Part shown: piece after piece, positions 1-64,000 of the stretch | Numbering within the stretch: position 1 is the stretch's first letter | How the letters are laid out: each line of letters begins with the position of its first letter | Source: Vulcanimicrobiota bacterium | GTDB lineage: Bacteria > Vulcanimicrobiota > Vulcanimicrobiia > Vulcanimicrobiales > Vulcanimicrobiaceae | Direction of reading: 5' to 3' | NCBI GenBank assembly: GCA_963723515.1 | Contig: CAVRQT010000003.1 | Span: 896,001 to 960,000, forward strand | DNA: 64,000 nucleotides | Notes under the pieces: generated by a model | The model's input: the letters and a program-made list of their open reading frames with translations, nothing else | Database searches by the model: none | Told to the model about the DNA's origin: nothing | Program-made: the position numbers and the translations under genes

Positions 1-760
1 GTCCGCCTTCTCGATCGTAAACGGGCGATCTGTCCGCTCTTTCACGTATGCGATCGTCTTTTCGTCAGCGTGAAAGATGCCGTTCTTTGCACCGCACTCG
101 ATCGCCATATTGGCCATCGTGATACGGCCTGTGATCGAAAGTTCGTCGACCGTTGTCCCGTGATACTCGATGGCGCGATAGGTTGCGCCGTCGATGCCAA
201 GCGTGCCGACGGTCTTGAGCATGATATCTTTGGCGTAAACCATCGTCCCGGGGCGTGCCGCTATAGACGAGCTTGATCGATGCCGGCACCTTGAGCCAAA
301 CTTCGCCAAGCGCGAACGCGGCTGCGACATCGGTAGATCCCATTCCCGTGGCGAAGGCGCCGAACGCTCCGTACGTGCAGGTATGTGAATCACCGCCAAC
401 GATCAGCTCGCCAGGCGCAACGAGACCCTCTTCAGGCAATACGACGTGTTCGATTCCACCGCGACCCACGTCGAAGAAATTTTCGATCTGCTGTTCGGCG
501 GCGAATTCTTTCATCAACTGCGCGAGTTTCGCGGATTGCGCGTTATTTGCCGGAACGAAGTGATCTTCAACGAGCGCAATCTTCGAGTGGTCGAAGACTC
601 TTGTCGCGCCCTTGAGGTTTCGGAATGCAGCAATTGCGACCGCGGCCGAGAGTTCGTTCGCCAAGACGAGATCGACTTTGGCGTTGATGATTTCGCCAGG
701 GGAGACTCGATCAAGGCCCGCGTGGCGCGCGAGAATTTTTTCGGTGAGCGTCATGCCCAT
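1..760 (-). CDS. leuC: 3-isopropylmalate dehydratase/homoaconitase large subunit, short type-2 (LeuC/HacA) family; runs off the left edge, frameshift near 245
   Basis: MGMTLTEKIL start, DH..P, GIEH and GGDSHTCTYGA motifs. After a frame change it continues VYAKDIML...MANMAIECGAKNGIF to the window edge. Confidence 0.85.
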
Positions 761-900
761 GGAGCGAAGATCCTTTCGTTCGGAGGTTCCGGCTCTACCG
801 TTTTACCCGCCGGCTCGCATGCCTCTCGGGCACGCTATGGAACCAATGACCGATGTGGCTATCCGTTTGTTTGCAGGCCCGCTTGCTCCGAGATTGACCG

Positions 901-2023
901 GTGAACCTCAGCATCGACTACCGCACTGAGGCGGCCGCGCTTGATGCCGAAATCCTGGCTACGATCGCCGAGGTGGCAAGAGGCCGACGTTTCAAGGACT
1001 GATGACCCCTTTTGTTCGCTTGCTTTGCGAATTTTTGCGCACCAGCTGCGCTATAATGCGCCGTATGCACGATTCTGCGCATCGCTAGGAGTGACGCCGG
1101 AAACATTGCCGGCTGGGTGGCAAGAGATTCCGGCCGTGCCGGTCAGCGCATTCAAAGATGCGACTCTTGCAACCTTTCCTCCGCAGAACGCCGATTTGCA
1201 GTTTGAGACGAGCGGTACGACCGTGGGGCGAACGGGGCCAGCATTTGATGGAAAACGCCGCGCTCTATCGTGCGTCACTCTTAGCCGGATTCGATCGCGC
1301 GATTCTTTCACAGGGTTCGGATTTACGCTATCTCAACATGTTGCCACGCTGGCGCGATAAACCGCAGTCATCGCTTTCGTACATGATGGAAGTCGTTACG
1401 CGAGAGCGCGGTGACGGCCGCGATGGCTGGTATGTCGATGACCAGGTTCCTGCGGTCGACGCGTTTATCAAAGATGTGCGATGCGCGATCGGCGGAAGCG
1501 GCCGCCGTTTGTATCACCGGCACCGCATTCATGCTGGTGATTCTTCTCGATGAGTTGCAGGCGCGAAAGGAGCGCTTTGAGCTGCCGCCTCGATCCCGCA
1601 TCATAGAGACCGGCGGCTTCAAAGGCCGCGCGAAGAGAAATCGAGCGCAGCGAATTTTACCGTCTTCTCGCAGATCGCTTCGGCATCGAAATCCAAGCCA
1701 TTATTGCGGAATACGGCATGACCGAGTTGACGAGCCAGTATTATGACTCGATCGAAAGCCGTCGGGACGCCGAACGCGTAAAAGTCTCGCCTCCATGGTT
1801 ACGCTGGCGTATCGTTGATCCACGCGGTCGCGATGTCACCGCTGGAGCGAAAGGAACGCTCGTCCACGTTGACCTCGCAAATCGCAGCTCCGCAATCGCG
1901 ATCGCGACCGACGACGTAGCGTACCAGAGCGGTGGCGGTTTTGTGATGTGCGGCCGCTCGAGCGACGCCGAGTTGCGCGGGTGCTCGCTGGACGCCGAGG
2001 AGTTATGGTCGAGCGTCCGCTGA
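901..2023 (+). CDS. LuxE-like acyl-protein synthetase (several frameshifts)
   Basis: Fragments across frames: EIPAVPVSAFK, FETSGTT, IETGGFKGR, EYGMTELTSQYY, VDLANRSS and C-terminal RGCS (acylated Cys). GTG start at 901 is inferred. Confidence 0.8.
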
Positions 2024-3238
2024 TCCGCGGCGCGCTGCGCCAGCTTCCCGCGACTGCGATTATCGAAGCGCTCGCTGCAAGCGCCCAAACGTGGGCCGAT
2101 CCGAGCTATCCGCCCCGCCGGCAATGCGCTCGGGCGATCGAAGCGAGAACCGGGTACTCGGCACCGGTCGTGCGATTTGCGCTCGATCAACTCTTTGCAT
2201 CGATCACCCGCCATTCATTAACGGCGACGATCTGCGCCGAAATTGGGAGCATCGATGCGCTCGATCGATTTGTCGCGCGCGACGGCCGCCCGGATGGCTT
2301 TGCAAAGGCCGTCGGCGAGGTATGCGTCATCGCGAGCCGGACGACGGTCGGCGTCGCGCTCCTGCCCGCACTCTATGCGCTCTGCGCAAAATGCGACGTC
2401 ACCGTCAAAGATCGTGAAGACAATCTTATCGCCGCATTCTTCCGCACATTGGAAGAGCATGATAAGTCGTTCGGGCATGCGGCGCACGCCGAAGCCTTCA
2501 GCTCGCATGACGTGCAGCCGGATTTTCTCCGCCGATTTTCGTGCGTCGTTGCTTTCGGCAACGATGACACGCTGGCTCACCTTCGCAATGCCTGCAATGC
2601 CGATGCACGCTTTGTCGGTTTTGGCTCGAGAGCCAGCGCGGGTTATATCTCGTCGGATGCGGCGCGATCTGGAACGCTGGATCAGCTGCTCGAGAACGCG
2701 GCGCTCGATGCGGTGCTCTACGAAACGGAAGGCTGCATGTCGCTGCACATGCTCCTTGTCGAAGGTGCTGACAACGCTAAGAAGTGTCGCGCAGCGCTTT
2801 GCGGCGGCCCTGAAAAACGCCGGTGAACTGTTCCCGCGCGGTGCGAAGGACGCTTTTGGTGAAGCGCGCTTCTTAGCCGCCCGCAACGCAGCTGCGTTTC
2901 GCGCATCGCTGGGTCAAGGCGCGGTTTTTGCGGGCGATGATTACGTCGTCATTTTGGATCCGCCGGCCGAACAGCCTCCGCCCTTCGCACCGCGATGCAT
3001 TCCCGTGATTGCGGTGGATGAACCGGGCGACGCGTTGCGCCGTTTCACGGACCACGGCATCGCACTCGAAGCGTTTGCGCTCTCCGACGAGCGGCCCGAT
3101 ATCGTGCAGATGGCACTCGAATCAGGTGCGGTTCGTCTCACGCGCTTCGGCGAGCTGCAAAAACCTTCACCGGCCGGCAATCATGGTGGCCGAGGCAGAA
3201 TCACAGATTTTATTCGCTGGATCGACCGCGAATTATGA
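2005..3238 (+). CDS. LuxC-like acyl-CoA/acyl-protein reductase (frameshift near 2790)
   Basis: VVAFGNDDT nucleotide-binding segment, LDAVLYETEGCMS catalytic Cys region, C-terminal RLTRFGELQ.P...HGGR. Joins ORFs 1948..2826 and 2243..3238. Confidence 0.75.
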
Positions 3239-4515
3239 GCCCTGCATCTCCGGGACTGAAGTCGCAGCGGCTTGCAGCGCTGCTCGAGCGATACGGGTCT
3301 CGCGGCGCCCATGTCGCCACGCATTCGCCGATTTTCTGGGAGTCAGCGGAGGATGCGCGCATCATCGACGTTGATGGCAATGCCTACCTCGATCTGTGCG
3401 CGGCGTTCGGCGTCGCCGCGCTTGGGCATTCGAATCCGAACGTTGCAAGGGCTATCGGCGATCAGGCTGCTCGGCTGATGCACGCGATGGGCGATCTCTA
3501 TCCGGCCGGCCTGCTCGGGCAGTTGCTCGAAAAATTGGCTGAGATTTCGCCGGGCGACCTTTCAAAGAGCTTGCTCTGTTCGACAGGCACCGAAGCGGTG
3601 GAAGCGGCGCTCAAAACCGCGCTCCTATATAATGGAAGGCCTGGGATCATCGCCTTCAACGGCGCCTACCACGGCCTCTCGCTGGGCGCGCTCGAGGTTT
3701 GCGGGCTGCCCTTCTTTCGCAAGCCGTTCGAGCCGGCGTTAACGCATCGCGGCATCTTCTTCGATTATCCGCGCGCAGGTGGTCAATCAGCGGTGGATCG
3801 CACGATGACCGCGATTCGAGAGAAATTGCGGGACGATCGCGCGGTTGGCGCGCTGATCGTCGAGCCGATCCAAGGCCGCGGCGGCATCGTTCTGCCGCCG
3901 GACGGCTTCTTGCGGGCCCTGAGAGCGCTCTGCGACGAAGAGGGCGTCGTCCTGATCTTCGATGAGATCTACACCGGCTTGGGACGGACCGGCGCGTTCT
4001 TCGCCGCCCAACACGAGCAAGTCGTTCCCGATATCATGTGCGTCGGAAAAGCGCTCGGCAATGGATTTCCAATTTCAGCGGCAATTGCAAAGCCGCAGAT
4101 CATGGATGCATGGCCGGCGGCAGGCAGCGAAGCGCTGCACACTTCCACATTTCTCGGAAACCCGATGGGATGCGCGGCCGCTTTAGCAACAATTGATCAA
4201 CTCCAACGTCGTCGGCTTCCCGAACGGGCGCGCGAACTTGGCGAACGCGTCCAACACCGGCTCGAAACGCTACGCGGTAAGGATAGCGTTGTTGACGTTC
4301 GCGGGCGCGGACTCTTTTGGGGCGTGGAGATGCGCGATGTCCAGACCGCGCAAGCAATCGTCCAAGACGCTTTACGGCACAAGTTGATGGCCTTCGCCGA
4401 AGGCGCGGTCATCGCGATCATGCCGCCTTTAACGATTTCCGAGGAACGGCTCGATCAGGGGCTCGACATCTTAACGTCCGTGATCGCGGATTACGCCGTG
4501 ACGGGCACGCGATAG
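3235..4515 (+). CDS. Class III PLP-dependent aminotransferase (GabT/ArgD/LysJ-like)
   Basis: GTEAVEAA, AYHG, VEPIQGRGG, FDEIYTGLGRTG, VGKALGNG, HTSTFLGNP. ATGA overlap with luxC. Confidence 0.9.
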   Translation: MSPASPGLKSQRLAALLERYGSRGAHVATHSPIFWESAEDARIIDVDGNAYLDLCAAFGVAALGHSNPNVARAIGDQAARLMHAMGDLYPAGLLGQLLEKLAEISPGDLSKSLLCSTGTEAVEAALKTALLYNGRPGIIAFNGAYHGLSLGALEVCGLPFFRKPFEPALTHRGIFFDYPRAGGQSAVDRTMTAIREKLRDDRAVGALIVEPIQGRGGIVLPPDGFLRALRALCDEEGVVLIFDEIYTGLGRTGAFFAAQHEQVVPDIMCVGKALGNGFPISAAIAKPQIMDAWPAAGSEALHTSTFLGNPMGCAAALATIDQLQRRRLPERARELGERVQHRLETLRGKDSVVDVRGRGLFWGVEMRDVQTAQAIVQDALRHKLMAFAEGAVIAIMPPLTISEERLDQGLDILTSVIADYAVTGTR

Positions 4516-5539
4516 TGCTTTACAAAGTTGGCGTCGCCGGTGCCGGCTTCGGCGAGAAGGCGCACATCGCGGCGTACCAAGCGCATCCGGCGTTCGAAGT
4601 GGTCGCCGTTGCCTCGCCGCACTCGGCTCCACGCGTTGCGCGCGAACGGAACCTCAAGCACGCGTTCAAGAGCGTCGCTGAAATGCTCGAGCACGCCGAG
4701 CTCGACGTCGTCTCGATCGCCTCTCCTCCGTTTGCGCACCATGAAGATGTTCTCGCCGCGCTCGCCGCAAAAAAGCATGTCATTTGCGAGAAACCGTTCA
4801 CGCTGAGCGTCGCGCAAGCTGAAGAACTGACGAGCGCCGCAAGAAAAGCGGGAACGGCTTGCGGCATCATGCATGAGTTTCGGTGGGTGCCGCAGCGCCT
4901 TGCGATGCGTGAACTGATCGCGAACCGCCATCTGAGCCCGCTGCGTGAACTCGAAGTGACGCAGTTGAGCAGCAATCTGCGCGCCTCGGGCGACCGCAAG
5001 CGAAGTTGGTGGTTTCAGAAATCAAAAGGCGGCGGCCTCGCCGGTGCATTGCTATCCCATTTGATCGAACGGCGAATTGGCTCGTTGGGCAGCATCCTGT
5101 CCGCAGCACCGGCTATTTGAGGACCGCCAACGCTCGCCGGCACGATGCCGAGGGCCAGTTCACGAGTACCGTCGATGATGGGGCGTTCGCGATAATCGAC
5201 TATGGCGAAGGCTTGATCGGACGATTAACTGCAGACGGCACGTGCGCCGTTGACTCGTTTACGCTTGCCGCTCACGCGGAGAATCGAACCGTCGTCGCGA
5301 GCGGCCCCGGCATGGTCGAGAATCGCCTCTTCGCGGTCGACGCCGATGAAACGTCGGAGCTGGAGTGCACTCCAATGAAATACGCGCGCTTCGAATCGGT
5401 GCATCCAAACGTTCCACTCATTATGGAGCTGCTCGACGAGCTCGTCAAAGAGATTGAGAGCGGCAACAGCGCGCTGCCGACATTCGAGGATGGGCTTCAT
5501 ACGCAGCGCGTCCTCGAGTCGATCGGTTATCGCGCATAA
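4515..5539 (+). CDS. Gfo/Idh/MocA family oxidoreductase (frameshift near 5070)
   Basis: VGVAGAGFG, HVICEKPF, GGGLAGALLSHLID, PTFEDG. GTG start overlaps the upstream stop. Confidence 0.85.
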
Positions 5540-6774
5540 AATGTTGTCCAGAGCAGGCCCAGCGCTGCAACCGTAGCGCGCGATTGGATCAGTTCGCGCG
5601 AACCGCGCAGCAGCAGGCGCTGCGTCCGAACATCATCACCGCTCGCGATGCCAAGCCACACAAGACCAACCGGTTTCTCCGGCGTGCCGCCTTGCGGCCC
5701 GGCGATGCCCGTCGTTGCGATGCCGACATCCGCGCGCAAACGCAGGCGAACGCCGCGCGCCATTGCGCGGGCAACTTCAGCGCTGACCGCCCCAAATTCA
5801 GTCAACAACGACTCCGGCACATCTAATGCCTCCGCTTTGACCGCATCGGCGTAGGAAACAATACCGCCCAAGAACATCTGTGATGCGTTGGGGACACTTG
5901 TAACGCGCGCCGCGATGCGCCCGCCCGTGCACGATTCTGCAGCCGCTAGCGTCCGACGATCCGCGATGAAGCGCTTGACGAGAACTCCTTCGAGCGTCTC
6001 ATCATCCGTGCCGAAAATGTGACCGCCGAGACGTGTAACAATCGTCTGTTCGAGTGGCGCAATCGACCTTTGTGCACCGGAATCATCCGCCGCTTTCGCC
6101 GTGAGTTTGACGTCGCATCGAAAGTCGTGCGCCAGCACCGCGATCTTTGGATTCTCTTGCGACGCGAAGAGATCGCCGATGCGATGATCGATTTCAGACT
6201 CCGCGATTCCAATCGTGTGCAGTACGCGCGTCGTTATGCGGCTATGCAACGCAAAACGGGTCCGCAGCCAGGGAACGAGATGCTCGTCGAGCATCGGCAT
6301 CATCTCGTGCGGCACGCCCGGCATTGCCGCGACGAACTTTCCTTCCTTTGAAAAGGCGATAAAGCCGGCAGCCGTCCCATTCGGATTTGCAAGCGTCGTG
6401 GATCCGCGCGGAAGCAGCGCCTGTTTGCGATTGTTCTCACGCATCACTCGGCCCGAGCCCGCGAACACTCGCTCGATCTGACGAAGCGCGTCGTCGTTGA
6501 GTTCCATGTCGAGCTCAAGGGCATCACAAATCGCTTCCTTTGTCAGATCGTCGGTCGTCGGACCGAGGCCGCCCGAGGTGATGACGCCGTCGGCCCGAGC
6601 GAGCGCGTCTTCGATCGCCTTGCGGATCCGCGCGCGATTGTCGCCCACGGCGTGCGTCGCATAGACGTCCACGCCGTTCGATGCGAGCGCTCGGGCGATA
6701 TAGCCGGTATTCGTGTCGGTTAGCTGACCTAAGAGCAGCTCCGTGCCGACGGCAATGATTTCACATTGCGGCAT
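5527..6774 (-). CDS. cinA: Competence/damage-inducible protein CinA (with NMN deamidase domain)
   Basis: AVGTELLLG, GGLGPTTDDLT, AESCTGG, TGIAGP.GG.PEKPVG. Confidence 0.92.
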   Translation of the reverse strand: MPQCEIIAVGTELLLGQLTDTNTGYIARALASNGVDVYATHAVGDNRARIRKAIEDALARADGVITSGGLGPTTDDLTKEAICDALELDMELNDDALRQIERVFAGSGRVMRENNRKQALLPRGSTTLANPNGTAAGFIAFSKEGKFVAAMPGVPHEMMPMLDEHLVPWLRTRFALHSRITTRVLHTIGIAESEIDHRIGDLFASQENPKIAVLAHDFRCDVKLTAKAADDSGAQRSIAPLEQTIVTRLGGHIFGTDDETLEGVLVKRFIADRRTLAAAESCTGGRIAARVTSVPNASQMFLGGIVSYADAVKAEALDVPESLLTEFGAVSAEVARAMARGVRLRLRADVGIATTGIAGPQGGTPEKPVGLVWLGIASGDDVRTQRLLLRGSRELIQSRATVAALGLLWTTFYAR

Positions 6775-6791
6775 CGTGATGCGCCGAAGCG

Positions 6792-7391
6792 CTATTCGAC
6801 GATGTGCGGCCGCTGCGCGCGTTGCTCGTCGTCAAACCATGCGGGATAATGCAAAACGACATCTGCACCAAAACCTCGTGCTGCAGCGATCATCGCCTCT
6901 CGTCGCTTCGCAGATGATTGCGGATACCGTTGGCGATTGCGCTTTTTCAGCGTGGCCTGACACGAAATGAATCGCGCAAAGGTCTCGTCGAGTGCCTTTT
7001 GGATACCGTTGCGTAGCAGTTTTCCGACTCGCGGCGCCAATCCGGCCGTTGAGATCGCAACTCGAACCGGGCCCGCTTGCGCGATCGCCGCCATCGATAC
7101 GAAACCGTGCGCGGGCTGATCGATACAGCACAGCAAGAATCGTTCTTTATCGGCCAACGCACGCAAACGCGCGGAGAGTACGTCGTCTTGCGGCGTAGAG
7201 ATCACAAAGAATGCGCCGGCAAGGCGCCCATCCTCGGCAGCCGCGCCGTCGCGGATGCGCTCGACGTCGGCGCCCGATTCGCGTAAGGCCGCCTCTTTTC
7301 GATCGGCTTCGCTATCGTCGCCGATCACAACGCATCGCCGGCCTTCGAGATTCAAGCTGACCGGAAACGGCACCCGATTACCGTTCTCCAA
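6792..7391 (-). CDS. Precorrin-2 dehydrogenase/ferrochelatase-like protein (CysG N-terminal/SirC family), degenerate NAD motif
   Basis: FPVSLNLEGRRCVVIG, IDQP, VAISTAGLAP. Confidence 0.7.
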   Translation of the reverse strand: MENGNRVPFPVSLNLEGRRCVVIGDDSEADRKEAALRESGADVERIRDGAAAEDGRLAGAFFVISTPQDDVLSARLRALADKERFLLCCIDQPAHGFVSMAAIAQAGPVRVAISTAGLAPRVGKLLRNGIQKALDETFARFISCQATLKKRNRQRYPQSSAKRREAMIAAARGFGADVVLHYPAWFDDEQRAQRPHIVE

Positions 7392-8243
7392 CTAAAAATC
7401 CACTGGTCGGAGGTAAAATTCGTTGATGGCGGTGTTCGAGAGCATCGCCGTCGTCGGAAGATGGCGCTTCCAATGTGTTCCTTCGACGCGCTCGCGCACG
7501 AGCTTGATTTCATCCGCGGCAAATCCGCGTTCGCGCAATTGTGCGTCGCCGTAGCCCAGCAGCATTTGGGAAAGAATCGCGTCGGCGCGTGAGTAGGTGA
7601 TTCCCAAATCGCCCTCGTCGGTCTGATTCGCCTCGAGATCCGCACTGGGCGCCTTATCGATCAGCGGCTCCGGCACACCTAAGTAGCGCGCGAGCTCCCA
7701 AACCTGCGTCTTGAAAAGATCGCCTAGTGGATTGAGTGGCGGCGAATCGTCCGCGTGCCACGTGAAATACCCGAGAAGCCGCTCGGTTTTGTTTCCCGTT
7801 CCAACCGGCAGCGCGCGCAATTTCGATGATTGGTCGAAGAGGATCAGCATGCGCATGCGCGCCATCACGTTGCCGCGTCGCCGGCCATCCGCCTCGGGTT
7901 CGAATTGCAAGTAGCCGTCGACCGCAGCGCTGATATCAACCGTCCGGCATTTCAACCCTAAGGCATCGATGACCAGCTGCGCGTCCGTCAGGCTTTGAGG
8001 ACTCGAAGTGCGATACGGCATCCGGATCGCATAGACGTTACGCGACCCCAGAGCGCGCGCGCAAAGATATGCCGTGACCGCTGAATCAACACCTCCGCTA
8101 AGCCCGATGACCGCGCGATCGATGCCGCGCCGCTCGATCAATTCATCTTGCAGAAACGCTTCAAGCCAGCTGGCCGCGACGGGCGCGTTGATCGTCGGCC
8201 CAAGCTCTTGAATCCGCGCGTGCGCTTCAATGACTGGCAGCAT
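7392..8243 (-). CDS. nadE: NAD+ synthetase, synthetase subunit
   Basis: GLSGGVDSA, NVMARMRM, GTGNKTE, PSADL..QTDE. Start placed at MLPVIEA. Confidence 0.92.
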   Translation of the reverse strand: MLPVIEAHARIQELGPTINAPVAASWLEAFLQDELIERRGIDRAVIGLSGGVDSAVTAYLCARALGSRNVYAIRMPYRTSSPQSLTDAQLVIDALGLKCRTVDISAAVDGYLQFEPEADGRRRGNVMARMRMLILFDQSSKLRALPVGTGNKTERLLGYFTWHADDSPPLNPLGDLFKTQVWELARYLGVPEPLIDKAPSADLEANQTDEGDLGITYSRADAILSQMLLGYGDAQLRERGFAADEIKLVRERVEGTHWKRHLPTTAMLSNTAINEFYLRPVDF

Positions 8244-9159
8244 CGATCGCTCGCCGCGGAAGCGGCAATTCCTCATCAAGCAGCAAGTCCGGTAAGGCCG
8301 AGGAGAGATCTCCCAGCAACGGCAAACCGGCGCGCGCGATGTCCACTTCGTCGAGATCGACTTTCGCGCGCAAGATGCACGGCCCAAGCGGAGGCGCCTG
8401 CACGACAACCTTTCCGCGCGGGTCGATGACGCACGATGAACCGGTCATACCTTTGCCGCCTTCAAAACCTGTCAAACCGGCGTAGAAAATGAAGACGCCG
8501 TGTTCGCTCGCGGCATTACTCAATAGAGAGCGCCAAACCGTCAGACTCTCCAATTCATTGTTTTCATGGGCCTCGACGCCGCGACCGGGCGCCGCGCTTG
8601 GAACGATCAAACAGCGCGCCCCTTTGATGGCAGCGATCGTCGGCATGATGCTGTGCCAAATGTCTTCGCAGATCAGCAACGCCATCGGACCGAAACGTGT
8701 TTGGAAAACGCCGAGGCGCCGCCCACGCGAGAGAAACCGTTCTTCATCGAAGACGCCGTACGTCGGCAAGAACATCTTTCGATGCACGTGCAAGATGTGA
8801 TGCCTTTGCGCATCGACCTGCGTGTAGAGGGCGCTGTTGTAATACGTCCCCGAATCATTCTCATAGAATCCGGCGGCAATGTCGACCGCGGCTTTCGAAC
8901 CGGCCTTCTTCCATGCATCGGCCAAATCGCCGGCGACCGCATCAGCGCTGCGGGCCAGATCGAAAACCGCACCTTCGAGAAAGTAACCGGAAAGCGCCGC
9001 CTCCGGCAGCACGATCAAATCGGGCGCGTCGGCGGCGAGCTGCCTGAACACTTCTCGAACATCCGCGAGATTTCGTTCGTAGTCGCCCTTGTGGGGTTTG
9101 AGCTGAACGATGGCCACATCGCACTGCCGCGATGCGCCGGGCACGCGATCAGCCGGCAC
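8227..9159 (-). CDS. Nitrilase-family amidohydrolase, probable glutaminase subunit of NAD synthetase
   Basis: E-K-C triad (LPEAAL; HRKMFLPTYGVFDEERF; LICEDIW). Overlaps nadE. Confidence 0.85.
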   Translation of the reverse strand: MPADRVPGASRQCDVAIVQLKPHKGDYERNLADVREVFRQLAADAPDLIVLPEAALSGYFLEGAVFDLARSADAVAGDLADAWKKAGSKAAVDIAAGFYENDSGTYYNSALYTQVDAQRHHILHVHRKMFLPTYGVFDEERFLSRGRRLGVFQTRFGPMALLICEDIWHSIMPTIAAIKGARCLIVPSAAPGRGVEAHENNELESLTVWRSLLSNAASEHGVFIFYAGLTGFEGGKGMTGSSCVIDPRGKVVVQAPPLGPCILRAKVDLDEVDIARAGLPLLGDLSSALPDLLLDEELPLPRRAIDAASH

Positions 9160-10573
9160 TTTGCGCGCGCAGCGGATTCTCTTCGACCTGAACTGCCGTC
9201 ATTTTTTCGGCAATCTCTTCGGCTGGATAGAGCCAAATCTCGGCCATCGTCGGATGCAGGTGCGGAATTTTCATGAACTCAAAGACCGTTGCCGAGTAGT
9301 TCATCGCTACGATCATTTCATGGATGAGATCGGAGCCATGCGGACCGAGAACGGAGGCGCCGAGTATGCGGCCGCTGTCCGCCGCGGCGAGCATCTTGAC
9401 GAACCCTTTGGTCTTATTGATACAAATCGCCTTACCGTGTTCGGCGAAATCGTATACTCCCTTGATATACGAGACGCCCGTCGATTGCAGATCCCGCTCG
9501 GTATCGCCGACGACGGCGACTTGCGGATCGCTAAAGACCGTGTGCGTTTTCACGAGATGGTAGTTCGCGGGCTCGGCCGCATTGAGAACAGCATTGCGCG
9601 CGGCAAGTTCGCCCTGATAGATCGCGACGTGGACGAGCAAAAACCGACCCGTCGCATCACCGACTCCGAAGATGTGCGGGTTCGACGTTCGTAACGACTG
9701 GTCGACTTCCACACCGGTCTTCGGATGGGCGCGTACTCCCGCAACGTTCAATTCGAGGCCGGCGATATCTGGGACGCGTCCGAGTGCATAGAAGATCTCC
9801 GCGGCCTCGATCTCTTCGCCGCCCCCATGATGCACGACGTGTGCCACTTTCTTGCCATCTCGCGAAGAGACGCGTTCGATTAAAGTCTCTGTGCGTACGT
9901 CGATTCCCTCATCGCGAAAGTAGTCAGTCAAAGCGTAGCCAACATCATGATCTTCACTCGAAAGCAAGTGCGGGCTGCGCAAGATGATCGTTGTCTTGAC
10001 ACCGAGCCGCGCGAAGAACTGCCCTAATTCGGTACCGACGTATCCGCCGCCCAAGACGAGGATCGATTCGGGCAATCGATGCAGCTCGAGCGCCATGTCA
10101 CTGTCGATGTAGCCCGTTTCTTGCAGTCCCGGCAGAACAGCCGGCGTCACCACGCTGCCTGTCGCGATGATGAATTTCTGCGCCTCGAGCGTCGCATGGT
10201 CTCCAACTTGAAGCTTCGTCGGCGAAACGAACCGGGCGCGACCCTCGTACAGCGGAAATTCGCGGATCCCATCGATGCGATATTGCGCGAAGCCGGCGAT
10301 AATGTCGCGCTTGCGACGCATGATGTGCGGAAAGTCGATCTCGATCGAACCAACGTCGATGCCAAGTTCGGAAGCGTCGCGCACATCTTGCATGGTATCG
10401 CTGCTGGCGATCAGCGTCTTCGAGGGCATGCAGCCACGCAAGATGCAAAGACCGCCGAGGGGTCCGTGATCGACGAGCGCGACATCCGCACCCAATGCGC
10501 GCGCGGTTCGCGCCGCCGCGAATCCGCCCGATCCGGCGCCGACGATAACGATGTCATGTCGCGCATCAATCAT
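9149..10573 (-). CDS. Dihydrolipoamide dehydrogenase-like flavoprotein disulfide reductase
   Basis: GAGSGG, GGLCILRGCMPSK redox disulfide, GGGYVGTE, HPTMAE. Confidence 0.85.
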   Translation of the reverse strand: MIDARHDIVIVGAGSGGFAAARTARALGADVALVDHGPLGGLCILRGCMPSKTLIASSDTMQDVRDASELGIDVGSIEIDFPHIMRRKRDIIAGFAQYRIDGIREFPLYEGRARFVSPTKLQVGDHATLEAQKFIIATGSVVTPAVLPGLQETGYIDSDMALELHRLPESILVLGGGYVGTELGQFFARLGVKTTIILRSPHLLSSEDHDVGYALTDYFRDEGIDVRTETLIERVSSRDGKKVAHVVHHGGGEEIEAAEIFYALGRVPDIAGLELNVAGVRAHPKTGVEVDQSLRTSNPHIFGVGDATGRFLLVHVAIYQGELAARNAVLNAAEPANYHLVKTHTVFSDPQVAVVGDTERDLQSTGVSYIKGVYDFAEHGKAICINKTKGFVKMLAAADSGRILGASVLGPHGSDLIHEMIVAMNYSATVFEFMKIPHLHPTMAEIWLYPAEEIAEKMTAVQVEENPLRAQSAG

Positions 10574-10634
10574 TCTTCTTACGTTTGCTGGCTACAAGGG
10601 AGCGAGGGGTTTTCCTTTTAACTTTGCTTCTCTC

Positions 10635-12158
10635 GTGTCAGCGCAAGCCGAACAGCCCCGGCGCGATATTTTTCGGTTCTTCGGTACCGAAGCAACCTCG
10701 TCGGCCGGACTAACATCGCTCGTTGTCGTCATCTTGGCCGGTGCAACGATCGGGTTTTTCGGCTGGTATTACGCCGTTCTGCCGTTGCACCACGAACTGC
10801 TCTCCCAGTTCGCTTTGCCGCTCGCCGTCCTCGCCGGCGCAGCAATTGCGATTGCGCTCTGGCAATCGTACGCAATATATTTTTCACGACGAGCCGGCAT
10901 TAAGCTGGAGCGCTCGTTGCAGTACGACGCAATCTCATGGCTCTGCTGGCTCCTATTGTGGCTTTCATTCATCTTACCGCTGCAGCTCACACACAGCGGT
11001 CGAATGATCGCGCTCAGCGGCGCGCTTCTTTGCGCTTGCGAAACTTGCGGTCGCCGTCCGGTTCAATCAGACGGTTCGAGAAGTGCTGACGGACTTCGCC
11101 ATCACGCGGTTTGCCATCGTCGTCATCGCCGAACTTGCAGCGGTCATCATCGGCCAGCGGGCCGGAACGCATGTGGCGGAATCCCGGCATCTGCTGCTTG
11201 CTGTATGGGGACGCTGGGACGCAGTGCACTACATCGATATCGCTACCCAGGGCTATCACGGCACGAATATGGCGTTCTTCCCGCTCTTTCCGCTGCTCAT
11301 CGCGATCGTCGGCTTCTTCACCGGCAATCACCTCATCGCCGGGCTGCTCATTTCCAACGCGGCATTTTTCTTCGCGCTGCTGTACCTCTACAAACTTGTC
11401 GAGCACGAATTCGATCGAACCGTCGCGCGACGTGCGATCTTTTACATCTCTATTTTTCCGACCGCCATCTTCTTCTCGGCCGTATATACCGAGTCGCTAT
11501 TCCTTGCGCTCACCGTTGCATCGTTCTACTACATTCGCGAACGAAAATGGCTTCTCGCGGGCATAATCGGCATGCTCGCCGCCTTGACGCGCGCGGAAGG
11601 CCTACTCCTCGTCATTCCTTACCTCATGGAATGGTTCAACGCGCAGCAGCCCAGCGCGCCGCCTGAGTGGAAGAGGATCGCCGGCCTGGCGCTGATTCCG
11701 TTTGGCCTCTTCCTGTATATGGCGTGGCTGTGGGTGCTCAACGGCGATCCGCTCTATTTTTCGCACGTCCAGATTCATTGGAACCGCCACTTTGCGCCAC
11801 CGTGGGTGAGCGTCACGCATGCGCTTTACGTCATCGCGCACGCAAAGACGGGTCAAGTCGTCGCGAACCAAATTCTCGAGATCACGTTCACGGCGTTGAT
11901 GATCACCGTCTTGATCGCAGGGTGGAAGCAGTTGCGCCTCTCGGCGGCGGTTTACATGGCGCTTTCAATCCTAATTCCGATGTGCACGTCAAGCCTGATG
12001 AGCATGCCGCGGTTTGCGCTCGTCCTCTTCCCGATGTTCACCATTCTGGCGTTATGGGGACGCCGTCCGGCAATCAACAACCTGATCGTTGCGCTTTCGT
12101 TGCCGCTGCTGGGACTCTTCACGGTCTTATTTGCTGACTGGTATTGGGTTGCATATAA
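10635..12158 (+). CDS. GT-C fold membrane glycosyltransferase, PIG-V/mannosyltransferase-like (frameshift near 11030; 3' end uncertain)
   Basis: RWDAVHYIDIA..GY, AFFPLFP, VYTESLFL, SMPRF, multiple TM segments. Natural-looking end DWYWVA near 12153. Confidence 0.75.
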
Positions 12159-57042: not shown

Positions 57043-58777
57043 CTAAAAACTCACCGGTTCCATTGGTTCGCGCACCCGATCGACCCACGATGCATCGCCC
57101 AACCATTCGTAGCGGATTGTCGAGTAGGGAACCGTTCCATAAGAAAGCAGCTTGTTGTGAAAGGCACGCAGCGAAAAGTTCTTTCCTTCCCGATCCTTGA
57201 CGAGTCCCAGCAGCGTCTCAATCTCTGTCTTGCCGACGAGATAGTCGATCGCTTGTCCCGGGCCCATCGCAAAACGCGTGCCTTCACCGTATGCGGTGTC
57301 ATGGTCGATGCCGGCGTTGTGGCTGAAGTATTCGATTGCTTGCGGCAGTGACATCTCGCCCGTCGCGAGGCCCACATCAACACCGATGCGCGTTGCGCGA
57401 TGACGCATCAAGTGAATGACCGCGGCCCGGCCTGCGGGGTCGTGCTCGTAAAGACCAGCGCGCATCAGCATCTCTTCACCGTAAAACGCCCAGCCCTCCG
57501 CGAAGACGCCGTCGCCTTGTACATGCCGGATGTAGTCGGGATTGTGGTACGCAATCGAAAACTGCATGAAGTGCCCTGGGATGCCCTCGTGAGCGAGCAC
57601 CGGCAACACCGCCTCGCGCGCCTGCGTGGCGAAGAAGCTCGTATTCTTTGGGTCGTAATCCGGCACGAAATAGAAACCGGTCGGATCTTTATCGAAGACG
57701 CCCGGCGGATTCATGAAGCCGCCTGGGTTTGTCGCCGCCAACGCCTTGGGCAGTTCAACGATCCGAAACGTGCCAAGATAACGGGGGACGTCAACGAGCT
57801 GATGCGCAGTAATGAAGGCGCGCACTCGCGCCGTCTGATTCTCGTAATATCTCAGAAATGCGGCCTTATTGCGAAACGTCGGCTGATGAATGGCGCCCTT
57901 TTCATGACCGGCACGATTGACTTCCCACTGCTCGAGGGCGCGATCGCGGGTCAGTTCCAGCTCGCCGATGTTGCGTACTTGGTCGCTGGTATAAGGCAAG
58001 AGCAGTACGCGTCGCAGATACCAATCGTACTGATCTTTGCCGACCGCAAAACCGCCCTCGTGCCATTGCGCTAAATGCCCGTCAACCCACCGCTTGTAAT
58101 CGTGCAAGGCAGTAAGGGCGTCTGTTTGGGCGTTTTTCAGTTGCGGTCTTGAGGTTTGGTGAAGCGTTTTGCGCCATTGCATCCAGACTCGTCGTAAACA
58201 GCGCATCGCCCGAGGCGATATCTTCTGAAGCCACCTTACCAAATTCGCGTACGGCGTCGGTGAGATTGGCTTTGCCCTCGTCGAGAACGCGGCGGCAGTC
58301 GTGTAGACGCCCGATCGCATCGCGGACGCGCACATTGACGGGTGCAAACGGTTTCTTTATTAAGCTGAAGATGCCGTTGCTGCACTCACCTTCGTAGACG
58401 CTCGGATTGCGTTCGTTGGGTTTGAGAACCGTTTCCGTCCACCACGCACCTTCGATATTGGCACGCAACAGCAGATAGTTCACCTGATCGTGCGCACTCG
58501 CGCCGGCCGGTGGCACGAGACGCGCAAGCTCATCGCGGAAGTCATGCAAGCGCTGGAGGTAATTGAGACGAGCAGCAGGTGAGAAGTCTGCGAGCCTACT
58601 GTCGGCGGTGTGCAATCCGGCATCGGTTGAACCGGCCGGATCGACGCTGTATTCGTAGGTGACGAGGCGGTGCGCCAGGTTCTCTAAGACACTGCCGTAG
58701 TACGGTTGCGACTGCGCGCCGGCCGGCGATGCAAGCATGCCAATGAAAAGCAGGCTGAAAAGCAGTCGCTTGACCAT
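57043..58777 (-). CDS. DUF885 family secreted protein (frameshift near 58135)
   Basis: Signal peptide, HEGIPGHFMQ, FAEGWAFYGE, PGQAIDY..G, F.LRAFH. Confidence 0.85.
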
Positions 58778-58819
58778 CCGCGCGGCTTCTACGTGAGAGG
58801 TTTGAGCCCTGGAGAGACT

Positions 58820-59506: not shown

Positions 59507-62168
59507 TCATTTTGCCGCCGGTCCTTGGATCACGCGCACGAAATCGTTCGGCCGAACCCACTTTGCCAGCGCGTCCCGCAACATCTGAGGCGTCATCTCG
59601 AGTTGACGCTGCGCATCGATGAGGTTCTGATCGAGCGGCAGACCAAGCCCAGCATAAGCGAGCATCAGGTCGGCCACGCCGTCATAACTTTCGGCGCGCA
59701 ACGGTTGCTGCGAGACCAGCATCGCCTTGCCGAAGAGGATGTCGTTTGGCGGCATCGGCGAGCGCTGCGCGGCCACGATATCCGCCATCGCCAGGCCTTG
59801 GGCCGCATTTACTTTGTTCGGATCCGATGCAAAGTTCAGATCGAAGGTGGAGCGCGTCTTATCTGCAGCAAGCGCTGCGCCGACGCCGTACACGTAGCCA
59901 TGGCGATCGCGCAGATCGTGAAAGAGAATCGAATTACCGCCCGGATCCGAGGACCGCCGTCGCCAGCCGCAACGGTGCCCAATCCGGATCGAGCCGCGTT
60001 AATCGCAATGTTTCCGACAGTTTGACCGAAGACTGCACGCGCCCGGTTGCGGGAACGGTAACGTCCGCCGGCTTGTTGTCCGGCACGGGTGGCGGCTCGA
60101 TGTTCGGCTTGGCTCCGCTCGCGTGCCATCCGCCGAAATATTTCTGCACTAAGGCCTGCGCTTGCATCGGCGTCGTATCGCCGATAACGACGATCGTCGT
60201 TAGATCCGGGCGATAGACCGTGGCGTAATATTGCTGCACATCGGCGAGCGTGACGGACTGTGCGCGTCTGCAGCCGTTGCAAACCGTCGTGCCGGATCGC
60301 CGACAGGATACAGCGCATTTGCCATTGCTACCTCGGCAAGATGCGCGGGAGAGTTTTCTTCGCCGCGTAGCGCATCGACGGTTTGCGTTTTCACCGTCGC
60401 GAAATCGCCTTGGGGGAAAGCCGGATGCAGCTCTTCATCTGCCAGCAGTTGCAGCCCACGATCGAAGCGATCGCTCAAGACCCGTAGCGAAAAACTCGTG
60501 CCCGCGTCCGCATCAGCGGCGATGTTATCGAGTTCCCTGCGGAACGCAAGCCGGCTATACGTCGTCGTACCGTAGGACAAGAGCGGATCGGTGATGTCGG
60601 CCAGCCCGTCCTTACCAGCGGGCGTTTGTATGCCGGGGTTGTTCTGGATTTCGCCGCGCACGACGACCGTCGGTGTGATGCGTTCCGGAATGACGATCAA
60701 ACGCAAGCCGTTCGCCAGCGTCGTGTCCGTCGGGTGGATCGTTTCCGCCGGTACGCGCAATTGCTTGAGCAACGAAAGCGCCCACGACGGCAGCGGATCG
60801 TGGTGCGTCACGGTGATTTTGTTGCTCTCCGGCGCTTCACGTGTCGCGGCGTTCGGGTTGATCTTGCCGAGGTTCTTCGGGACGGCATATACCGCGACGG
60901 AATGCGCGTCATCCACATACTTGCGTAACACGCGATTGACATCAGCGACCGTAACGCGCTTGAGAGCGCCGAGGAACTGATCGGGATCGGTGCGACCCTC
61001 AACGGCGACGGCCTGACTCCACTCAAAGGCAAGGCCCTCAATCGAGTTGCCTTTGAACTCGGCATCGGCTATGGCTCGCGTCTTAACGGCCTCAACTAAA
61101 TTTGCCGGCACACCATCGCTCTTATATTTTGCAAGCACCGCGCGCAGGTCAGCATCGGCTTGCGCGGCCGGTTTACTCACGGGCACAGCGCTGATCACAA
61201 ATGCTGTTGAAGCATGCGGAAAATCGCGAGAGTCTATTCCCGTATAGAGCGCTTTGCCGCTAATCACGAGACCATAGAGCTCGCTGCGCTGGTTGTTAAG
61301 AACCGATTGCAAGATCTGCGATGCTGCATAGTCCGGATCGCGAAAGCCAGGGAAGCGATATCCGATCAAGACAACTGACACCGGCTGATCGCTGTCCTCG
61401 TGGTAAACGGCGCGCTTCATGGGACGCAGCACGACGGGCTTCCGCGCCGGCAGCTGGCGCCGCTGGAATTGCGCCAAAGTATTTCTTCACTTCCGCAATC
61501 GCGGTGCTGCCGTCAATATCACCGGTAATGACCAAGACCGCATTGTTCGGGTGGTACCAGGCATCATAGAACGCGCGCAGCTGCGGTGCATTGATCTTCC
61601 GCGTGAACCCCGCAACCGATCCAAGAACGTCATTTGCGTACGGCGTGCCGGCAAGCAACGCCACTGTGGCCCTGCGAAACGCACGATAAACCGCGATGCT
61701 GTTGTCCTGTGTCACTTCATTGAGGATGGCGCCGCGTTCGATATTCCACGACCTTTGGCTCAATGTGAGAGCCCGAGCGCGTGATGCCTCGAGGCGCAAT
61801 GCGATGTCAAGATATTGCGACGGCATAGAAAAGAAGAATTGCGTAACTTCATTTTGCGTATCGGCATCGTTGTTGCCGCCGGTGATCGCGGAGATGTCTG
61901 AGAGCTGCGATTCGCTGATCGTCTTGCTGCCGCGGAACATCATGTGCTCGGTCGCATGCGCCAAGCCGTCGATCGGCTGATCGTCGCCGCCGGCTTTGTA
62001 GTTCATGATCGTCGTGACGACCGGCGCCAGTGCGTCGCGAACGACGATCACTCTAAGCCCGTTCGGCAGGGTTGCTCGCGTGACGGGTAACGAATCCGCC
62101 CTCGCAACACTCGCTCCGAGCGCGAGGATTGCGATAAATGCAATCGTCATTACTCTTATGGTGCTCAT
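59507..62168 (-). CDS. Secreted two-module M16 zinc protease (PqqL-like; frameshifts near 61450, 60255, 59945)
   Basis: Signal peptide, LPNGL, HATEHMMFRG, WYHPNNA, second L.NGL module, LFHDLRDRHGYVYG. Confidence 0.85.
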
Positions 62169-62213
62169 TGGTTGCGGCGATTTCTCATCATCGTGACGCG
62201 GCGCCTTTTCTTC

Positions 62214-64000
62214 TTACGATGACGCGAGCATCGCGCGCGATGTCGGCTGCTCCTGAAGCAACCCCGCTAGGCCGCGATGTTCAGCATCTTCAAGGGCCGG
62301 ATCGCGTTTCACGATCTCTTCCGCACACCGCTTTGCCCGGCGATAAATATCGATGTCGCGCACGAGATCGGCAACCTTGAAGTTGACCAAGCCGGATTGC
62401 GCGGTACCCGCAAATTGGCCCGGTCCGCGCTGGCGCAGATCTTCTTCTGCGATCTCAAAGCCATCGGAAGACTGCGTCAGAAAGCTGAGCCGTTCAACTT
62501 CACCGGCTTCGTCAGGCGCGATCAGCAGGCAATACGACTTCGCCGCGCCGCGTCCGACGCGGCCGCGAAGCTGATGAAGTTGCGCTAGACCGTACCGATG
62601 TGCATCCAGCACCACCATGACGGTCGCATTTTGAACGTCGACGCCGACTTCGACGACCGTCGTTGAAACGAGCACGTCGACGTCGCCACTTACAAAGCGG
62701 CCCATCACCTCATCTTTTTCGCGCGGCGTTAGGCGCCCATGGAGTAAACCGACACGCAACTCGGAGAACTCGTGCTTTTTCAGCCGCTCGTATTCCGCCG
62801 TGACGCTGGTCGTGCCGGTCTCCGACTCTTCAATCGCCGGGGCAACGACATACGCTTGCGCGCCGCGTTGCACGTTGAGCCGCACAAACTCATATGCCTT
62901 CGATAGCCGGCTACGGCGCAAAGTAAACGTTTCAATCGGCGTACGTCCTGGGGGAAGCTCATCGAGCACCGACAAGTCGAGATCGGCGTAGACCGACTGT
63001 GCCAGGGTGCGCGGAATCGGCGTCGCGGTCATGTGCAACGTGTGGGGCCATAGCCCTTTGGCGCGCAGCTTCGCTCGCTGCTCGACGCCGAAGCGGTGCT
63101 GCTCGTCGATAATGACAAGACCGAGTTGCGCAAAATCAACCCCTTCGGTTAAGAGCGCGTGCGTTCCAATGGCCAGCCGCGCTTCAGCACTCGCTAATTT
63201 GCGTTTCGCCTCCTCGCGCGCACGGCCGGTCTGACTGCCGAAGATCGCTTCTACGGTGATGCCCAACGGCAAAAGTAGCGGCGCCAGCTTTCCGGCATGT
63301 TGTGCCGCCAAGATTTCCGTGGGCGCCATCAGGGCGGATTGCACGCCGTTGCGCGCGGCCATCAAAATCGCGGCCGCAGCCACGAGCGTCTTACCACTCC
63401 CCACATCACCTTGCAGCAGCCGATTCATCGGGGCATCCCGCGCCCATGTCGCGCCAGATTTCCTCGATGGCGCGTCGTTGCGCGGCGGTCAGCGCGAACG
63501 GTAGATGGCTTTCAAACTCGGACAACAGATCGGCGGGTTGTTTGAGCGCGGGTGCGCGTTCGGCCGTTTCGCGCTCGACGCGCTTAATTTGCGCTGCTAA
63601 TGCGAGCGCCAGAAATTCGGTAAAGATAAACCGCTCGCGCGCGAAATTCGCGGCTTCCGGTGTTTGGGGGCCGTGAATGTCCTGGTACGCTTTGGCGGCC
63701 GGCGGAAAATGAAACGCGCGGGCGAGCTTCTTCGGCAACGGATCGTCCGATAGAGCCACGAGCCGCTCGACGTTGCGGCTGATGACTTGTCGGATTTTGC
63801 GCGAGGTCAATCTCTTGCTGGCTGGGTACACCGGCACAATTTCGCCGCGATAACGCTCATCATCGTCGAGCGTGCGGTGCAGAGCGACGTTCATCCCCGT
63901 GACGCCGCGCATTTTGCTAACGCGGCCCCGTACGAAGATGCGCTGACCCTTGCGAAGCGCGCCGATTAAGTAGGCGCGCCCAAACCACGTCGCGACGAAT
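62214..64000 (-). CDS. recG: ATP-dependent DNA helicase RecG, 5' part outside the window (frameshift near 63440)
   Basis: RLLQGDVGSGKT, DEQHRFG, MTATPIPRTL, QLHQLRGRVGRG. Confidence 0.96.

Follow-up and report, generated by a model that had tools for sequence, protein, structure and literature searches.

A LuxE-LuxC-aminotransferase unit of class Eremiobacteria as a candidate nitrile-free route to the queuosine precursor preQ1

Introduction

What is made by an operon that couples LuxE-like and LuxC-like genes to an aminotransferase and an oxidoreductase gene rather than to luciferase genes? The question is raised by positions 901 to 5,539 of a stretch of 64,000 nucleotides (nt) from a Vulcanimicrobiota bacterium (GenBank assembly GCA_963723515.1, contig CAVRQT010000003.1, positions 896,001 to 960,000 of the forward strand); the whole stretch is referred to as the window and its genome as G000. 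A sequence-only reading had proposed that the operon converts an acid to an aldehyde and then to an amine, with fatty acids, dicarboxylates, glutamate and 2-aminoadipate as substrates to assay. Our answer is that the first three genes (hereafter the trio) may provide, throughout Eremiobacteria, a class of soil bacteria, a nitrile-free route, independent of QueC and QueF, that leads from 7-carboxy-7-deazaguanine (CDG), which QueE makes, to 7-aminomethyl-7-deazaguanine (preQ1). From the protein families, gene linkage and distribution described below, we give this reading a probability of about two in three.

Queuosine occurs almost universally as a modification of tRNA. In the canonical pathway QueC converts CDG to the nitrile preQ0 with ATP, and QueF reduces preQ0 to preQ1 with NADPH. 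To our knowledge, and in the literature that we searched, QueC and QueF are the only link between CDG and preQ1 in the de novo pathway. No description of a CDG-aldehyde-preQ1 route, nor of any pathway of this composition, was found in the literature collection searched, in agreement with the sequence-only reading, whose author knew of no characterised pathway of this kind.

Gene content of the operon

The four genes of the operon are the following:

905..2023, + strand: LuxE-like acyl-protein synthetase (acid-activating), in pieces over four frames with at least three frameshifts; first in-frame ATG at 944, true 5' end uncertain.
2005..3238, + strand: LuxC-like acyl-thioester reductase, in two frames, with one frameshift between 2763 and 2810.
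3235..4515, + strand: class-III, pyridoxal phosphate (PLP)-dependent aminotransferase (AT), intact, 426 aa.
4515..5539, + strand: Gfo/Idh/MocA-family NAD(P) oxidoreductase (hereafter Gfo), with one frameshift at ~5069; an accessory gene confined to the window's family of genomes.

Consecutive genes overlap, by 19 nt for luxE and luxC (2005-2023), by ATGA for luxC and AT (3235-3238) and by 1 nt at 4515 for AT and Gfo. Thus the content, order and overlaps of the four genes are as the sequence-only reading had them, but the genes are not all open: only AT (3235-4515) is. Pfam profiles recognise the pieces as they stand in the window, with 28.4 bits for LuxE (cut-off 24.9; last piece only), 82.6 and 32.2 bits for LuxC (cut-off 21; two pieces), 348.5 bits for Aminotran_3 and 95.2 bits for GFO_IDH_MocA. 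The two cysteines pointed out earlier, in RGCS of LuxE and EGCMS of LuxC, are both present in the window translations, the first near the LuxE C-terminus in ...ELRGCSLDAEEL (RGCSL) and the second in ...YETEGCMSLH.... The reported lack of luxA, luxB and luxD also holds within what was scanned: no Bac_luciferase or LuxD family was found among 150 composition-filtered open reading frames (ORFs) of window 5540-64000 (Pfam; not exhaustive), nor in the operon. A bacterial lux operon, with luxA/luxB luciferase and luxD thioesterase, was therefore not recovered by this filtered, non-exhaustive scan. As a whole the initial observation is partly confirmed: the genes are real, and three of them are frame-broken in this assembly.

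Conservation of the unit

The order luxE-luxC-AT-Gfo is intact in the six relatives examined of family Baltobacteraceae. Among 80 public loci retrieved with a LuxE profile, luxC is adjacent to luxE in 55, not adjacent in 22 despite at least 1.5 kb of downstream DNA, and the DNA is too short in three. All 34 luxE-luxC loci with at least 5 kb downstream carry both AT and Gfo. In the four split-type genomes luxC-AT is found ~190 kb from luxE, with Gfo next in three of them, while in the class-level relative G032 luxE-luxC-AT is followed by an MFS_3 transporter, without Gfo. The four-gene cluster is far more than chance. Because Gfo is missing beside the trio in G032 and in one split-type genome, the conserved core is the luxE-luxC-AT trio. 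The linkage of AT to luxC and luxE, first noted at this single locus, is conserved (6/6 relatives, 34/34 loci), and LuxC::AT and AT::LuxE fusions occur elsewhere.

A LuxE-like gene (E<=1e-30) is present in 149/149 genomes of class Eremiobacteria (131/131, 3/3 and 15/15 in families f1, f2 and f3), once per genome in 148 of them and in two pieces in G006. At the same threshold it was found in 0/51 genomes from 15 other families of the phylum. The conservation tallies include genome G036, and the completeness listing also G020 and G022; the conclusions are the same without them.

Some loci depart from the compact arrangement. An insertion of ~1.3 kb separates luxE from luxC, which otherwise overlap, in L017 (genome G010; 9449-10720) and in L027, L030, L031, L035, L042 and L102; in L017 it carries an opposite-strand ORF matching DUF1565.

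The Gfo gene is a lineage-specific accessory, outside the conserved core, and the part that the sequence-only reading gave its enzyme, reduction of the aldehyde or of an imine, is not supported. Its intact ortholog has both the Rossmann and the C-terminal domain of the family (102.6 bits for the N-terminal domain, 55.9 bits for the C-terminal domain and a further 47.8 bits), and it reaches no NCBIfam equivalog cut-off. An iminosugar product, suggested by the pairing of aminotransferase and oxidoreductase, was considered and found no support; the galactosyrin paper is related only via its luxCDABE reporter.

Distribution of queuosine genes

The que genes were counted in one sample of 81 genomes of the phylum, 32 from class Eremiobacteria and 49 from other classes. 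QueC over its cut-off is found in 0/32 class genomes and in 22/49 of the others, and QueF in 0/32 and 8/49 respectively. The genes on either side of the missing steps are nevertheless kept in the class: QueD in 32/32 (24/49 in other classes), Tgt in 31/32 (missing only in G000; 48/49 in other classes) and QueA in 31/31 class genomes, G000 included. queE adjoins queD in the three class genomes examined, again including G000; QueD has 94.4 bits here, over its cut-off.

All 22 QueC-positive genomes are also QueD-positive and, outside the class, QueD is accompanied by QueC in 22 of 24 genomes. When the 56 QueD-positive genomes are sorted by what accompanies QueD, 32 have the trio, 22 have QueC, two have neither (G075 and G085) and none has both. 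The canonical QueC-QueF pair is thus not found in the 32 class genomes sampled, and the trio and QueC are complementary among the QueD-positive genomes.

Linkage of the aminotransferase subfamily to queE

Metagenome contigs were searched with distant ATs that bear the active-site signature described in the next section and are 32-42% identical to one another; 80 loci were retrieved. A QueE-like ORF lies immediately upstream of AT on the same strand in 30 of these 80 loci; under a strict gap rule the count is 29 of the 62 loci with >700 nt upstream. QueE models are the best NCBIfam match for all 12 upstream ORFs tested, at 305-307 bits for three of them (cut-off 300) and at 250-261 bits for the other nine. 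luxE/luxC are also present in three of the QueE-AT loci. One locus (L151) reads QueE-AT-LuxE::LuxC, the last being an 853-aa fusion with 103.8 bits for LuxE and 144.9 bits for LuxC.

The gene next after AT is rsmA in 10/12 QueE-AT loci. This QueE-AT-RsmA (rRNA adenine dimethylase) arrangement is that of L186, L189, L195, L198, L203, L210, L211, L214, L215 and L217, without luxE/luxC on the contig DNA examined.

The aminotransferase active site

The nearest solved structures to AT are PatA (4uox, E 6.8e-76) and GabT. AT is a class-III enzyme (PF00202), and the PLP residues Lys268, Asp239 and Thr297 (GabT numbering) are kept in 45/45 orthologs. In the same 45 orthologs GabT Arg141 is replaced by Leu, Glu211 by Arg and Gln242 by Tyr, Phe or Trp, and position 398 is never Arg, being Ser, Ala, Thr, Gln, His or Val. 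In GabT, Arg398 normally binds the alpha-carboxylate of the keto- or amino-acid co-substrate, and Arg141 the distal carboxylate of omega-amino acids. An omega-amino acid would suit such a pocket less well than would a heteroaromatic aldehyde that has no carboxylate.

Arg211 without Arg398 is found in 99 of the 150 nearest 50%-identity clusters, the first canonical sequence coming at rank 58. This signature defines a large separate AT subfamily. It is also found in fusions with the two other proteins of the trio: LuxC::AT in P0122 (LuxC 119.1 bits) and AT::LuxE in P0167 (LuxE 37 bits). Among the signature-bearing fusion proteins (P0122, P0167, P0170, P0125 and P0217), the LuxC::AT protein is 818 aa long and AT::LuxE proteins are 860 and 826 aa; two signature-bearing proteins of 774 aa have a C-terminal half of ~370 aa without family assignment.

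The LuxE-like and LuxC-like enzymes

The family assignment that the sequence-only reading wished to see checked with hidden Markov models (HMMs) was obtained on intact orthologs. The LuxE-like ortholog of G013 matches Pfam LuxE (PF04443) with 49.4 bits for a cut-off of 24.9, over profile positions 38-384 of 391, and the LuxC-like ortholog matches Pfam LuxC (PF05893) with 121.7 bits for a cut-off of 21, over positions 3-401. Together with the two catalytic cysteines, these matches support, at the level of sequence, an ATP- and NADPH-dependent conversion of acid to aldehyde. LuxE-like clusters occur in several phyla (ESM Atlas).

The LuxE-like protein matches the LuxE chain 7xc6_E at E 1e-12 and keeps SGTT, the catalytic Lys and the C-terminal R..RGCSL. 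In 30/30 orthologs (~367 aa), which have no ANL C-terminal subdomain, Lys237 and R348...RGCSL with Cys357 are invariant. The motif corresponds to TRxxKGCxLS with Cys364 of Photobacterium phosphoreum LuxE, whose residue roles are given in PMC9157457. For the LuxC-like protein, the ortholog profile matches 7xc6_A at E 1.7e-44, and the EGC cysteine, invariant in 30/30 orthologs, is aligned with the acylated cysteine (YDQQAC). The alignment spans residues 50-449 of 7xc6_A only, so that ~49 first and ~28 last residues of P. phosphoreum LuxC are absent. In P. phosphoreum LuxC, residues I472, L478 and F483 line the exit of the 40-angstrom fatty-acyl cleft (PMC9157457). These three residues (numbering of that paper, offset 11) lie beyond the end of the LuxC-like protein, which thus lacks the long-cleft architecture.

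A complex model of LuxC with LuxE scores 0.80, and the best of the controls 0.01; at least 83% of contacts are common to the runs, and the predicted local distance difference test (pLDDT) of the partners is at least 84. Of 157 solved complexes, 116 attained this mark, as did two of 215 mismatched pairs. We read this model as a likeness and not as proof, since a like complex, 7XC6, has been solved.

The family names by themselves would fit a lux-like conversion of a long-chain acid to a fatty aldehyde and then to a fatty amine, giving an alkylamine for a lipid or natural product. An alkyl chain would also be accommodated by the hydrophobic Leu that AT has at GabT position 141 and by its aromatic residue at 242, and there is a precedent: according to bioRxiv 10.1101/2025.08.11.669332, TabE, a reductase like aldehyde dehydrogenase (ALDH) that clusters with LuxC, and the omega-transaminase TabA give dodecylamine for tambjamine BE-18591. 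Yet the proteins score far under the lux-operon equivalogs (NCBIfam), with 47.5 bits for a cut-off of 550 in the case of LuxE (NF052244) and 37.5 bits for a cut-off of 750 in the case of LuxC (NF052251), and the ends of the reductase that would border the exit of the long acyl cleft are missing. No thioesterase, acyl carrier protein (ACP) or lipid genes are linked to the unit, and a housekeeping product is suggested by the single copy present in 149/149 class genomes (split in two in G006). A fatty substrate would moreover leave unexplained the adjacency of the AT subfamily to queE and the complementarity with queC. We therefore regard it as very improbable.

Other small polar acids

A second family of alternatives keeps the acid-to-amine chemistry on another small polar carboxylate: putrescine might be made from 4-aminobutyrate (GABA), beta-alanine from malonate, 5-aminolevulinate from glutamate by a reaction like that of an aminomutase, or lysine from 2-aminoadipate beside LeuCD/HacAB-like genes. 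The nearest solved relatives of AT, putrescine and GABA aminotransferases, would agree with such substrates, but Arg141, for the carboxylates of omega-amino acids, is missing in 45/45 AT orthologs. Each product was also considered on its own.

PanD was not found in the five relatives scanned, as expected if beta-alanine had to come from another source; however, PanD is missing phylum-wide (found in 1/101 genomes) irrespective of the trio, and its lack in the other 100, with or without the trio, is uninformative. The beta-alanine hypothesis was rejected. For 5-aminolevulinate by a HemA/HemL analogue, HemA is present in 49/49 class genomes besides G000 and in G000 itself, so that the C5 route is complete. 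For putrescine there is no gap to fill, since spermidine synthase (SpeE family) and the OKR_DC_1 decarboxylase, both found in 5/5 genomes, cover polyamines; pyruvoyl arginine decarboxylase (ArgDC) was found in 0/5. Lysine via 2-aminoadipate is the suggestion that draws on the neighbourhood. LeuC/LeuD-type genes flank luxE in both family arrangements, and two relatives have no PF02784 decarboxylase at all, LysA included. The adjacency to LeuCD-type genes is nevertheless a feature of the family alone, with inversion in 22 of the 80 loci, and it is absent from the flanks of G032, the only class-level relative with flanks scanned. Taken together, another small polar acid seems an unlikely substrate.

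As to the arrangement itself, LeuC-LeuD stays near luxE in both family arrangements, and the rearrangement of ~190 kb by which the two are related splits luxE from luxC-AT-Gfo.

Frame breaks and the state of the assembly

Alignment with intact orthologs places the frame shifts of luxE at ~1236, ~1491 and 1622-1635, that of luxC at 2763-2810 and that of Gfo at ~5069, i.e. five 1-nt frameshifts across three of the four genes; further indels are possible at the 5' end of luxE (~905-960). The luxE pieces 905-1360, 1095-1553, 1387-1746 and 1607-2023 together span residues 31-364 of an intact LuxE of the same genus from end to end. Each of the three luxE shifts is the insertion of a single base, in one case within a G4 run.

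G000 is 2.11 Mb long in four contigs, with an estimated completeness of 88%. When ORFs from 174 kb of the same-genus genome G001 were compared with G000, 46 frameshift-like breaks were found in 140 kb aligned, many of them in genes with 85-95% identity. Two of the 46 belong to the LeuC-type gene immediately before the operon, and both luxE and leuC are in a single frame in G001. ileS appears split in G000. A uniform error rate across the DNA was considered and rejected: rpoB and rpoC are intact, and in every contig 62-73% of the length is taken up by ORFs of at least 300 aa (in the two main contigs, 62% and 66%). Because rpoB and rpoC are intact, the errors are patchy.

Are the breaks those of a real pseudogene cluster, in a genome that is losing queuosine synthesis? 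Five genuine frameshifts in 4.6 kb would be ~3 times the average density of the genome, the genome is small (2.1 Mb), and tgt was not found in the assembly by HMM or tblastn, which its loss would explain. Against this, the breaks are genome-wide and affect genes with 85-95% identity to the congener, including the neighbouring LeuC-type gene and apparently ileS, and luxE and leuC are intact in the same genus. The pieces span their orthologs end to end with only frame changes and ordinary divergence, the LuxE shifts are of the single-base kind just described, and queD, queE and queA are intact in G000. The lack of tgt also has another aspect: the congener carries tgt on a 10.3-kb contig of which 0/27 ORFs were matched in G000, while all 22 other sampled contigs were matched. 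Because the whole tgt contig is unmatched and the other 22 are matched, we attribute the absence of tgt to an assembly gap and not to loss of tgt alone. A real pseudogene cluster thus seems quite unlikely. Since 46 such events occur in 140 kb relative to a congener with an intact luxE, the five frameshifts of the window are most likely assembly errors, and the organism probably has working genes.

The region missing from G000 corresponds to G001:C11 (L126, L150), which also holds a class-I aminoacyl-tRNA-synthetase-like ORF. Other genes of the window are split as well: DUF885 (57046-58819), an M16 peptidase (59510-62213), RecG (62217-63999) and the NAD synthase/CN_hydrolase halves (7395-9198). 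In L015 (G007:C1:2411000-2425000), from a relative assembled in a single contig, the Gfo/Idh/MocA ortholog at 8017-9028 is also split over two frames; because of this, indel errors appear to touch other long-contig assemblies of the family. Single-base indels are frequent in this genome, and its gene calls have to be corrected for them before use.

Neighbouring genes

Two genes flank the operon and lie outside the proposed pathway:

1..760, - strand: start of a LeuC/HacA-type aconitase-family large subunit; divergent neighbour that runs off the window, with two frameshifts in the genome.
5527..6774, - strand: CinA-like gene, intact; convergent neighbour that marks the 3' boundary of the operon, a single-frame ORF of 415 aa.

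The LeuC/HacA-type gene, with its two frame breaks, lies within G000:C3:894973-896781. By tblastn it is 73-95% identical to the proteins of relatives, in three frames, over G000:C3:895481-896781, and its ortholog matches Pfam Aconitase. The CinA-like ORF is 55-61% identical to orthologs of relatives; the name CinA is our assumption from the translated sequence.

The proposed route to preQ1

The chemistry of the trio fits exactly what the step requires, the C7 carboxylate of the deazaguanine being taken to an aldehyde and then to an aminomethyl group. The LuxE-like enzyme would adenylate the carboxylate of CDG with ATP and park the acyl group on its C-terminal cysteine; the acyl group would pass to the active-site cysteine of the LuxC-like enzyme, where the thioester would be reduced with NAD(P)H to 7-formyl-7-deazaguanine. 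The specialised class-III aminotransferase would then convert this aldehyde to the aminomethyl group of preQ1, which Tgt would put into tRNA, queuosine being completed by QueA and later enzymes. What was observed are the families, catalytic residues, conserved linkage and fusions of the three enzymes, the complementarity with queC/queF and the queE adjacency of the AT subfamily; which acid is used, what donates the amino group and which way the flux runs we infer. The intermediate itself is a known and stable compound, released by QueF variants according to PMC13740343.

The acid-aldehyde-amine chemistry of the sequence-only reading is thereby supported, by families, catalytic cysteines and linkage, as far as sequence can do so. 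The substrates it had in mind (fatty acids, dicarboxylates, glutamate and 2-aminoadipate) are not: the trio is single-copy throughout the class and complements the absence of queC and queF beside queD, queE, tgt and queA, its AT subfamily lies directly behind queE elsewhere, and AT lacks the arginine that binds omega-carboxylates.

In a wider form, we lean towards the view that Eremiobacteria and many uncultured lineages, namely those with the queE-linked AT subfamily, may make preQ1 without preQ0, by means of a LuxE-type ligase, a truncated LuxC-type reductase and an aminotransferase with a relocated arginine, Gfo being an added fourth component in Baltobacteraceae.

Several observations weigh against this route. 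The first concern linkage: the trio is not adjacent to any que gene in the window or in the family, queD-queE being on another contig (G000:C2), and in f3 genomes the distance from the trio to que genes is 15-25 kb. No preQ1 riboswitch was found at the gathering threshold in 11 loci (149 kb; near the trio or queDE), nor at E<=1 in window 1-7000. Among the 80 metagenome loci, 38 have neither queE nor luxE/luxC by narrow HMMs, and for 11 of these 38 the 42 flanking ORFs (Pfam) are unrelated housekeeping genes only. Others concern the que genes. QueE models are the top five matches of the class QueE, but at 108-113 bits, below the equivalog cut-offs. In 25 genomes of other classes Tgt is found without QueD, QueC or the trio, so that salvage of preQ1 or queuine is common in the phylum; these 25 QueD-less genomes look like salvagers. 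One class genome, G011, has a QueC-like ORF of 406 aa with 83.5 bits (cut-off 150), the only such match in the 32 class genomes. The phyletic pattern comes from related, not independent, genomes and may represent one or few evolutionary events. Within the operon, the Gfo/Idh/MocA gene is without a place in the preQ1 scheme, and the loss of Arg398 leaves the loading of the amino donor unexplained, the normal alpha-carboxylate arginine being absent. The lack of tgt in the G000 assembly and the five frameshifts of the operon, discussed above, count on the same side.

The QueC-like ORF of G011 lies at 1957-3175 on the - strand of L149 (G011:C50:40500-45500). Its C-terminal half is QueC-like, with SGGLDS and a C-terminal Cys cluster, and it is fused to a Cys-rich N-terminal domain.

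If the route is correct, a second, nitrile-free link between CDG and preQ1 would account for the many genomes in which queD, queE and tgt occur but queC and queF do not, and pathway predictions for large uncultured groups would be corrected. LuxE/LuxC-type carboxylate reductases would gain a new class of substrates, and a large subfamily of aminotransferases would be defined by its unusual active site. For biocatalysis, the trio would be a carrier-free module by which an aromatic acid could be turned into an amine of benzylic type. What this window adds is phyletic complementarity across the class, the signature of the aminotransferase and a lineage-specific fourth gene.

Comparison with known systems

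The closest counterpart of the first two proteins is LuxC-LuxE of P. phosphoreum (7XC6; PMC9157457). Both systems have a two-protein design, with an adenylating enzyme that has no ANL C-terminal subdomain and carries the acyl group on a C-terminal cysteine, and an ALDH-like reductase with an acylated cysteine; the sequences match and the predicted complex is similar. In contrast, the window reductase is ~70 residues shorter, without the cleft-exit segment, and the window operon is coupled to an aminotransferase and has no luxA, luxB or luxD. Its substrate is likely a deazapurine acid, not myristate.

LuxE-LuxC-SDR clusters (SDR, short-chain dehydrogenase), uncharacterised, are found on plasmids of the cultivated bacteria Pantoea, Azospirillum, Priestia and Lactiplantibacillus. 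They share with the trio the LuxE/LuxC subtype (31-39% identity), the gene order and an aldehyde-processing enzyme as the next gene. They differ in that, in place of the aminotransferase, this third gene encodes a short-chain dehydrogenase (acid to alcohol), that ABC or SLC23 uptake transporters are linked, and that the reductases are full length (~480 aa), unlike the LuxC-like protein of the window. The records are L103 (Pantoea dispersa plasmid), L104 (Azospirillum lipoferum 4B), L105 (10-kb plasmid of Lactiplantibacillus plantarum) and L106 (Priestia megaterium plasmid); the SLC23 permease in these loci is of the nucleobase/ascorbate type, and purine genes (guaC, hpxD) are nearby in two records. 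The LuxE-LuxC-SDR unit resembles a version of the trio that would take an acid to an alcohol, and its substrate may be a nucleobase-like acid.

For the aminotransferase, E. coli PatA (4uox) and GabT have the same fold and the same Lys268, Asp239 and Thr297, with 37% and 32% identity respectively; the window AT differs from both by the absence of Arg141 and Arg398 and by the change of Glu211 to Arg, as in all 45 orthologs.

Thioester reduction followed by transamination is also known in other settings. PigE and TamH are fused thioester-reductase/aminotransferase enzymes, and the PigE model was matched in our family-model search. TabE/TabA of tambjamine BE-18591 resemble the trio in that a LuxC-cluster ALDH-like enzyme takes a thioester to an aldehyde and a class-III transaminase takes the aldehyde to a primary amine; TabE/TabA, PigE and TamH differ by their carrier-bound acyl-ACP or acyl-CoA thioesters, their C12 chains and their place in secondary metabolism (for TabE/TabA, bioRxiv 10.1101/2025.08.11.669332). 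The window unit, unlike TabE/TabA, has an activator of LuxE type that acylates itself in place of a carrier, and it is a housekeeping unit.

Finally, the canonical QueC/QueF pair and the trio would have the same start and end compounds, the same cofactor classes (ATP and NADPH) and the same place between QueE and Tgt. They belong to unrelated families, and they would differ in the intermediate, a nitrile for QueC/QueF and an aldehyde for the trio, and in the source of nitrogen, ammonia in the first case and a PLP-bound amino donor in the second.

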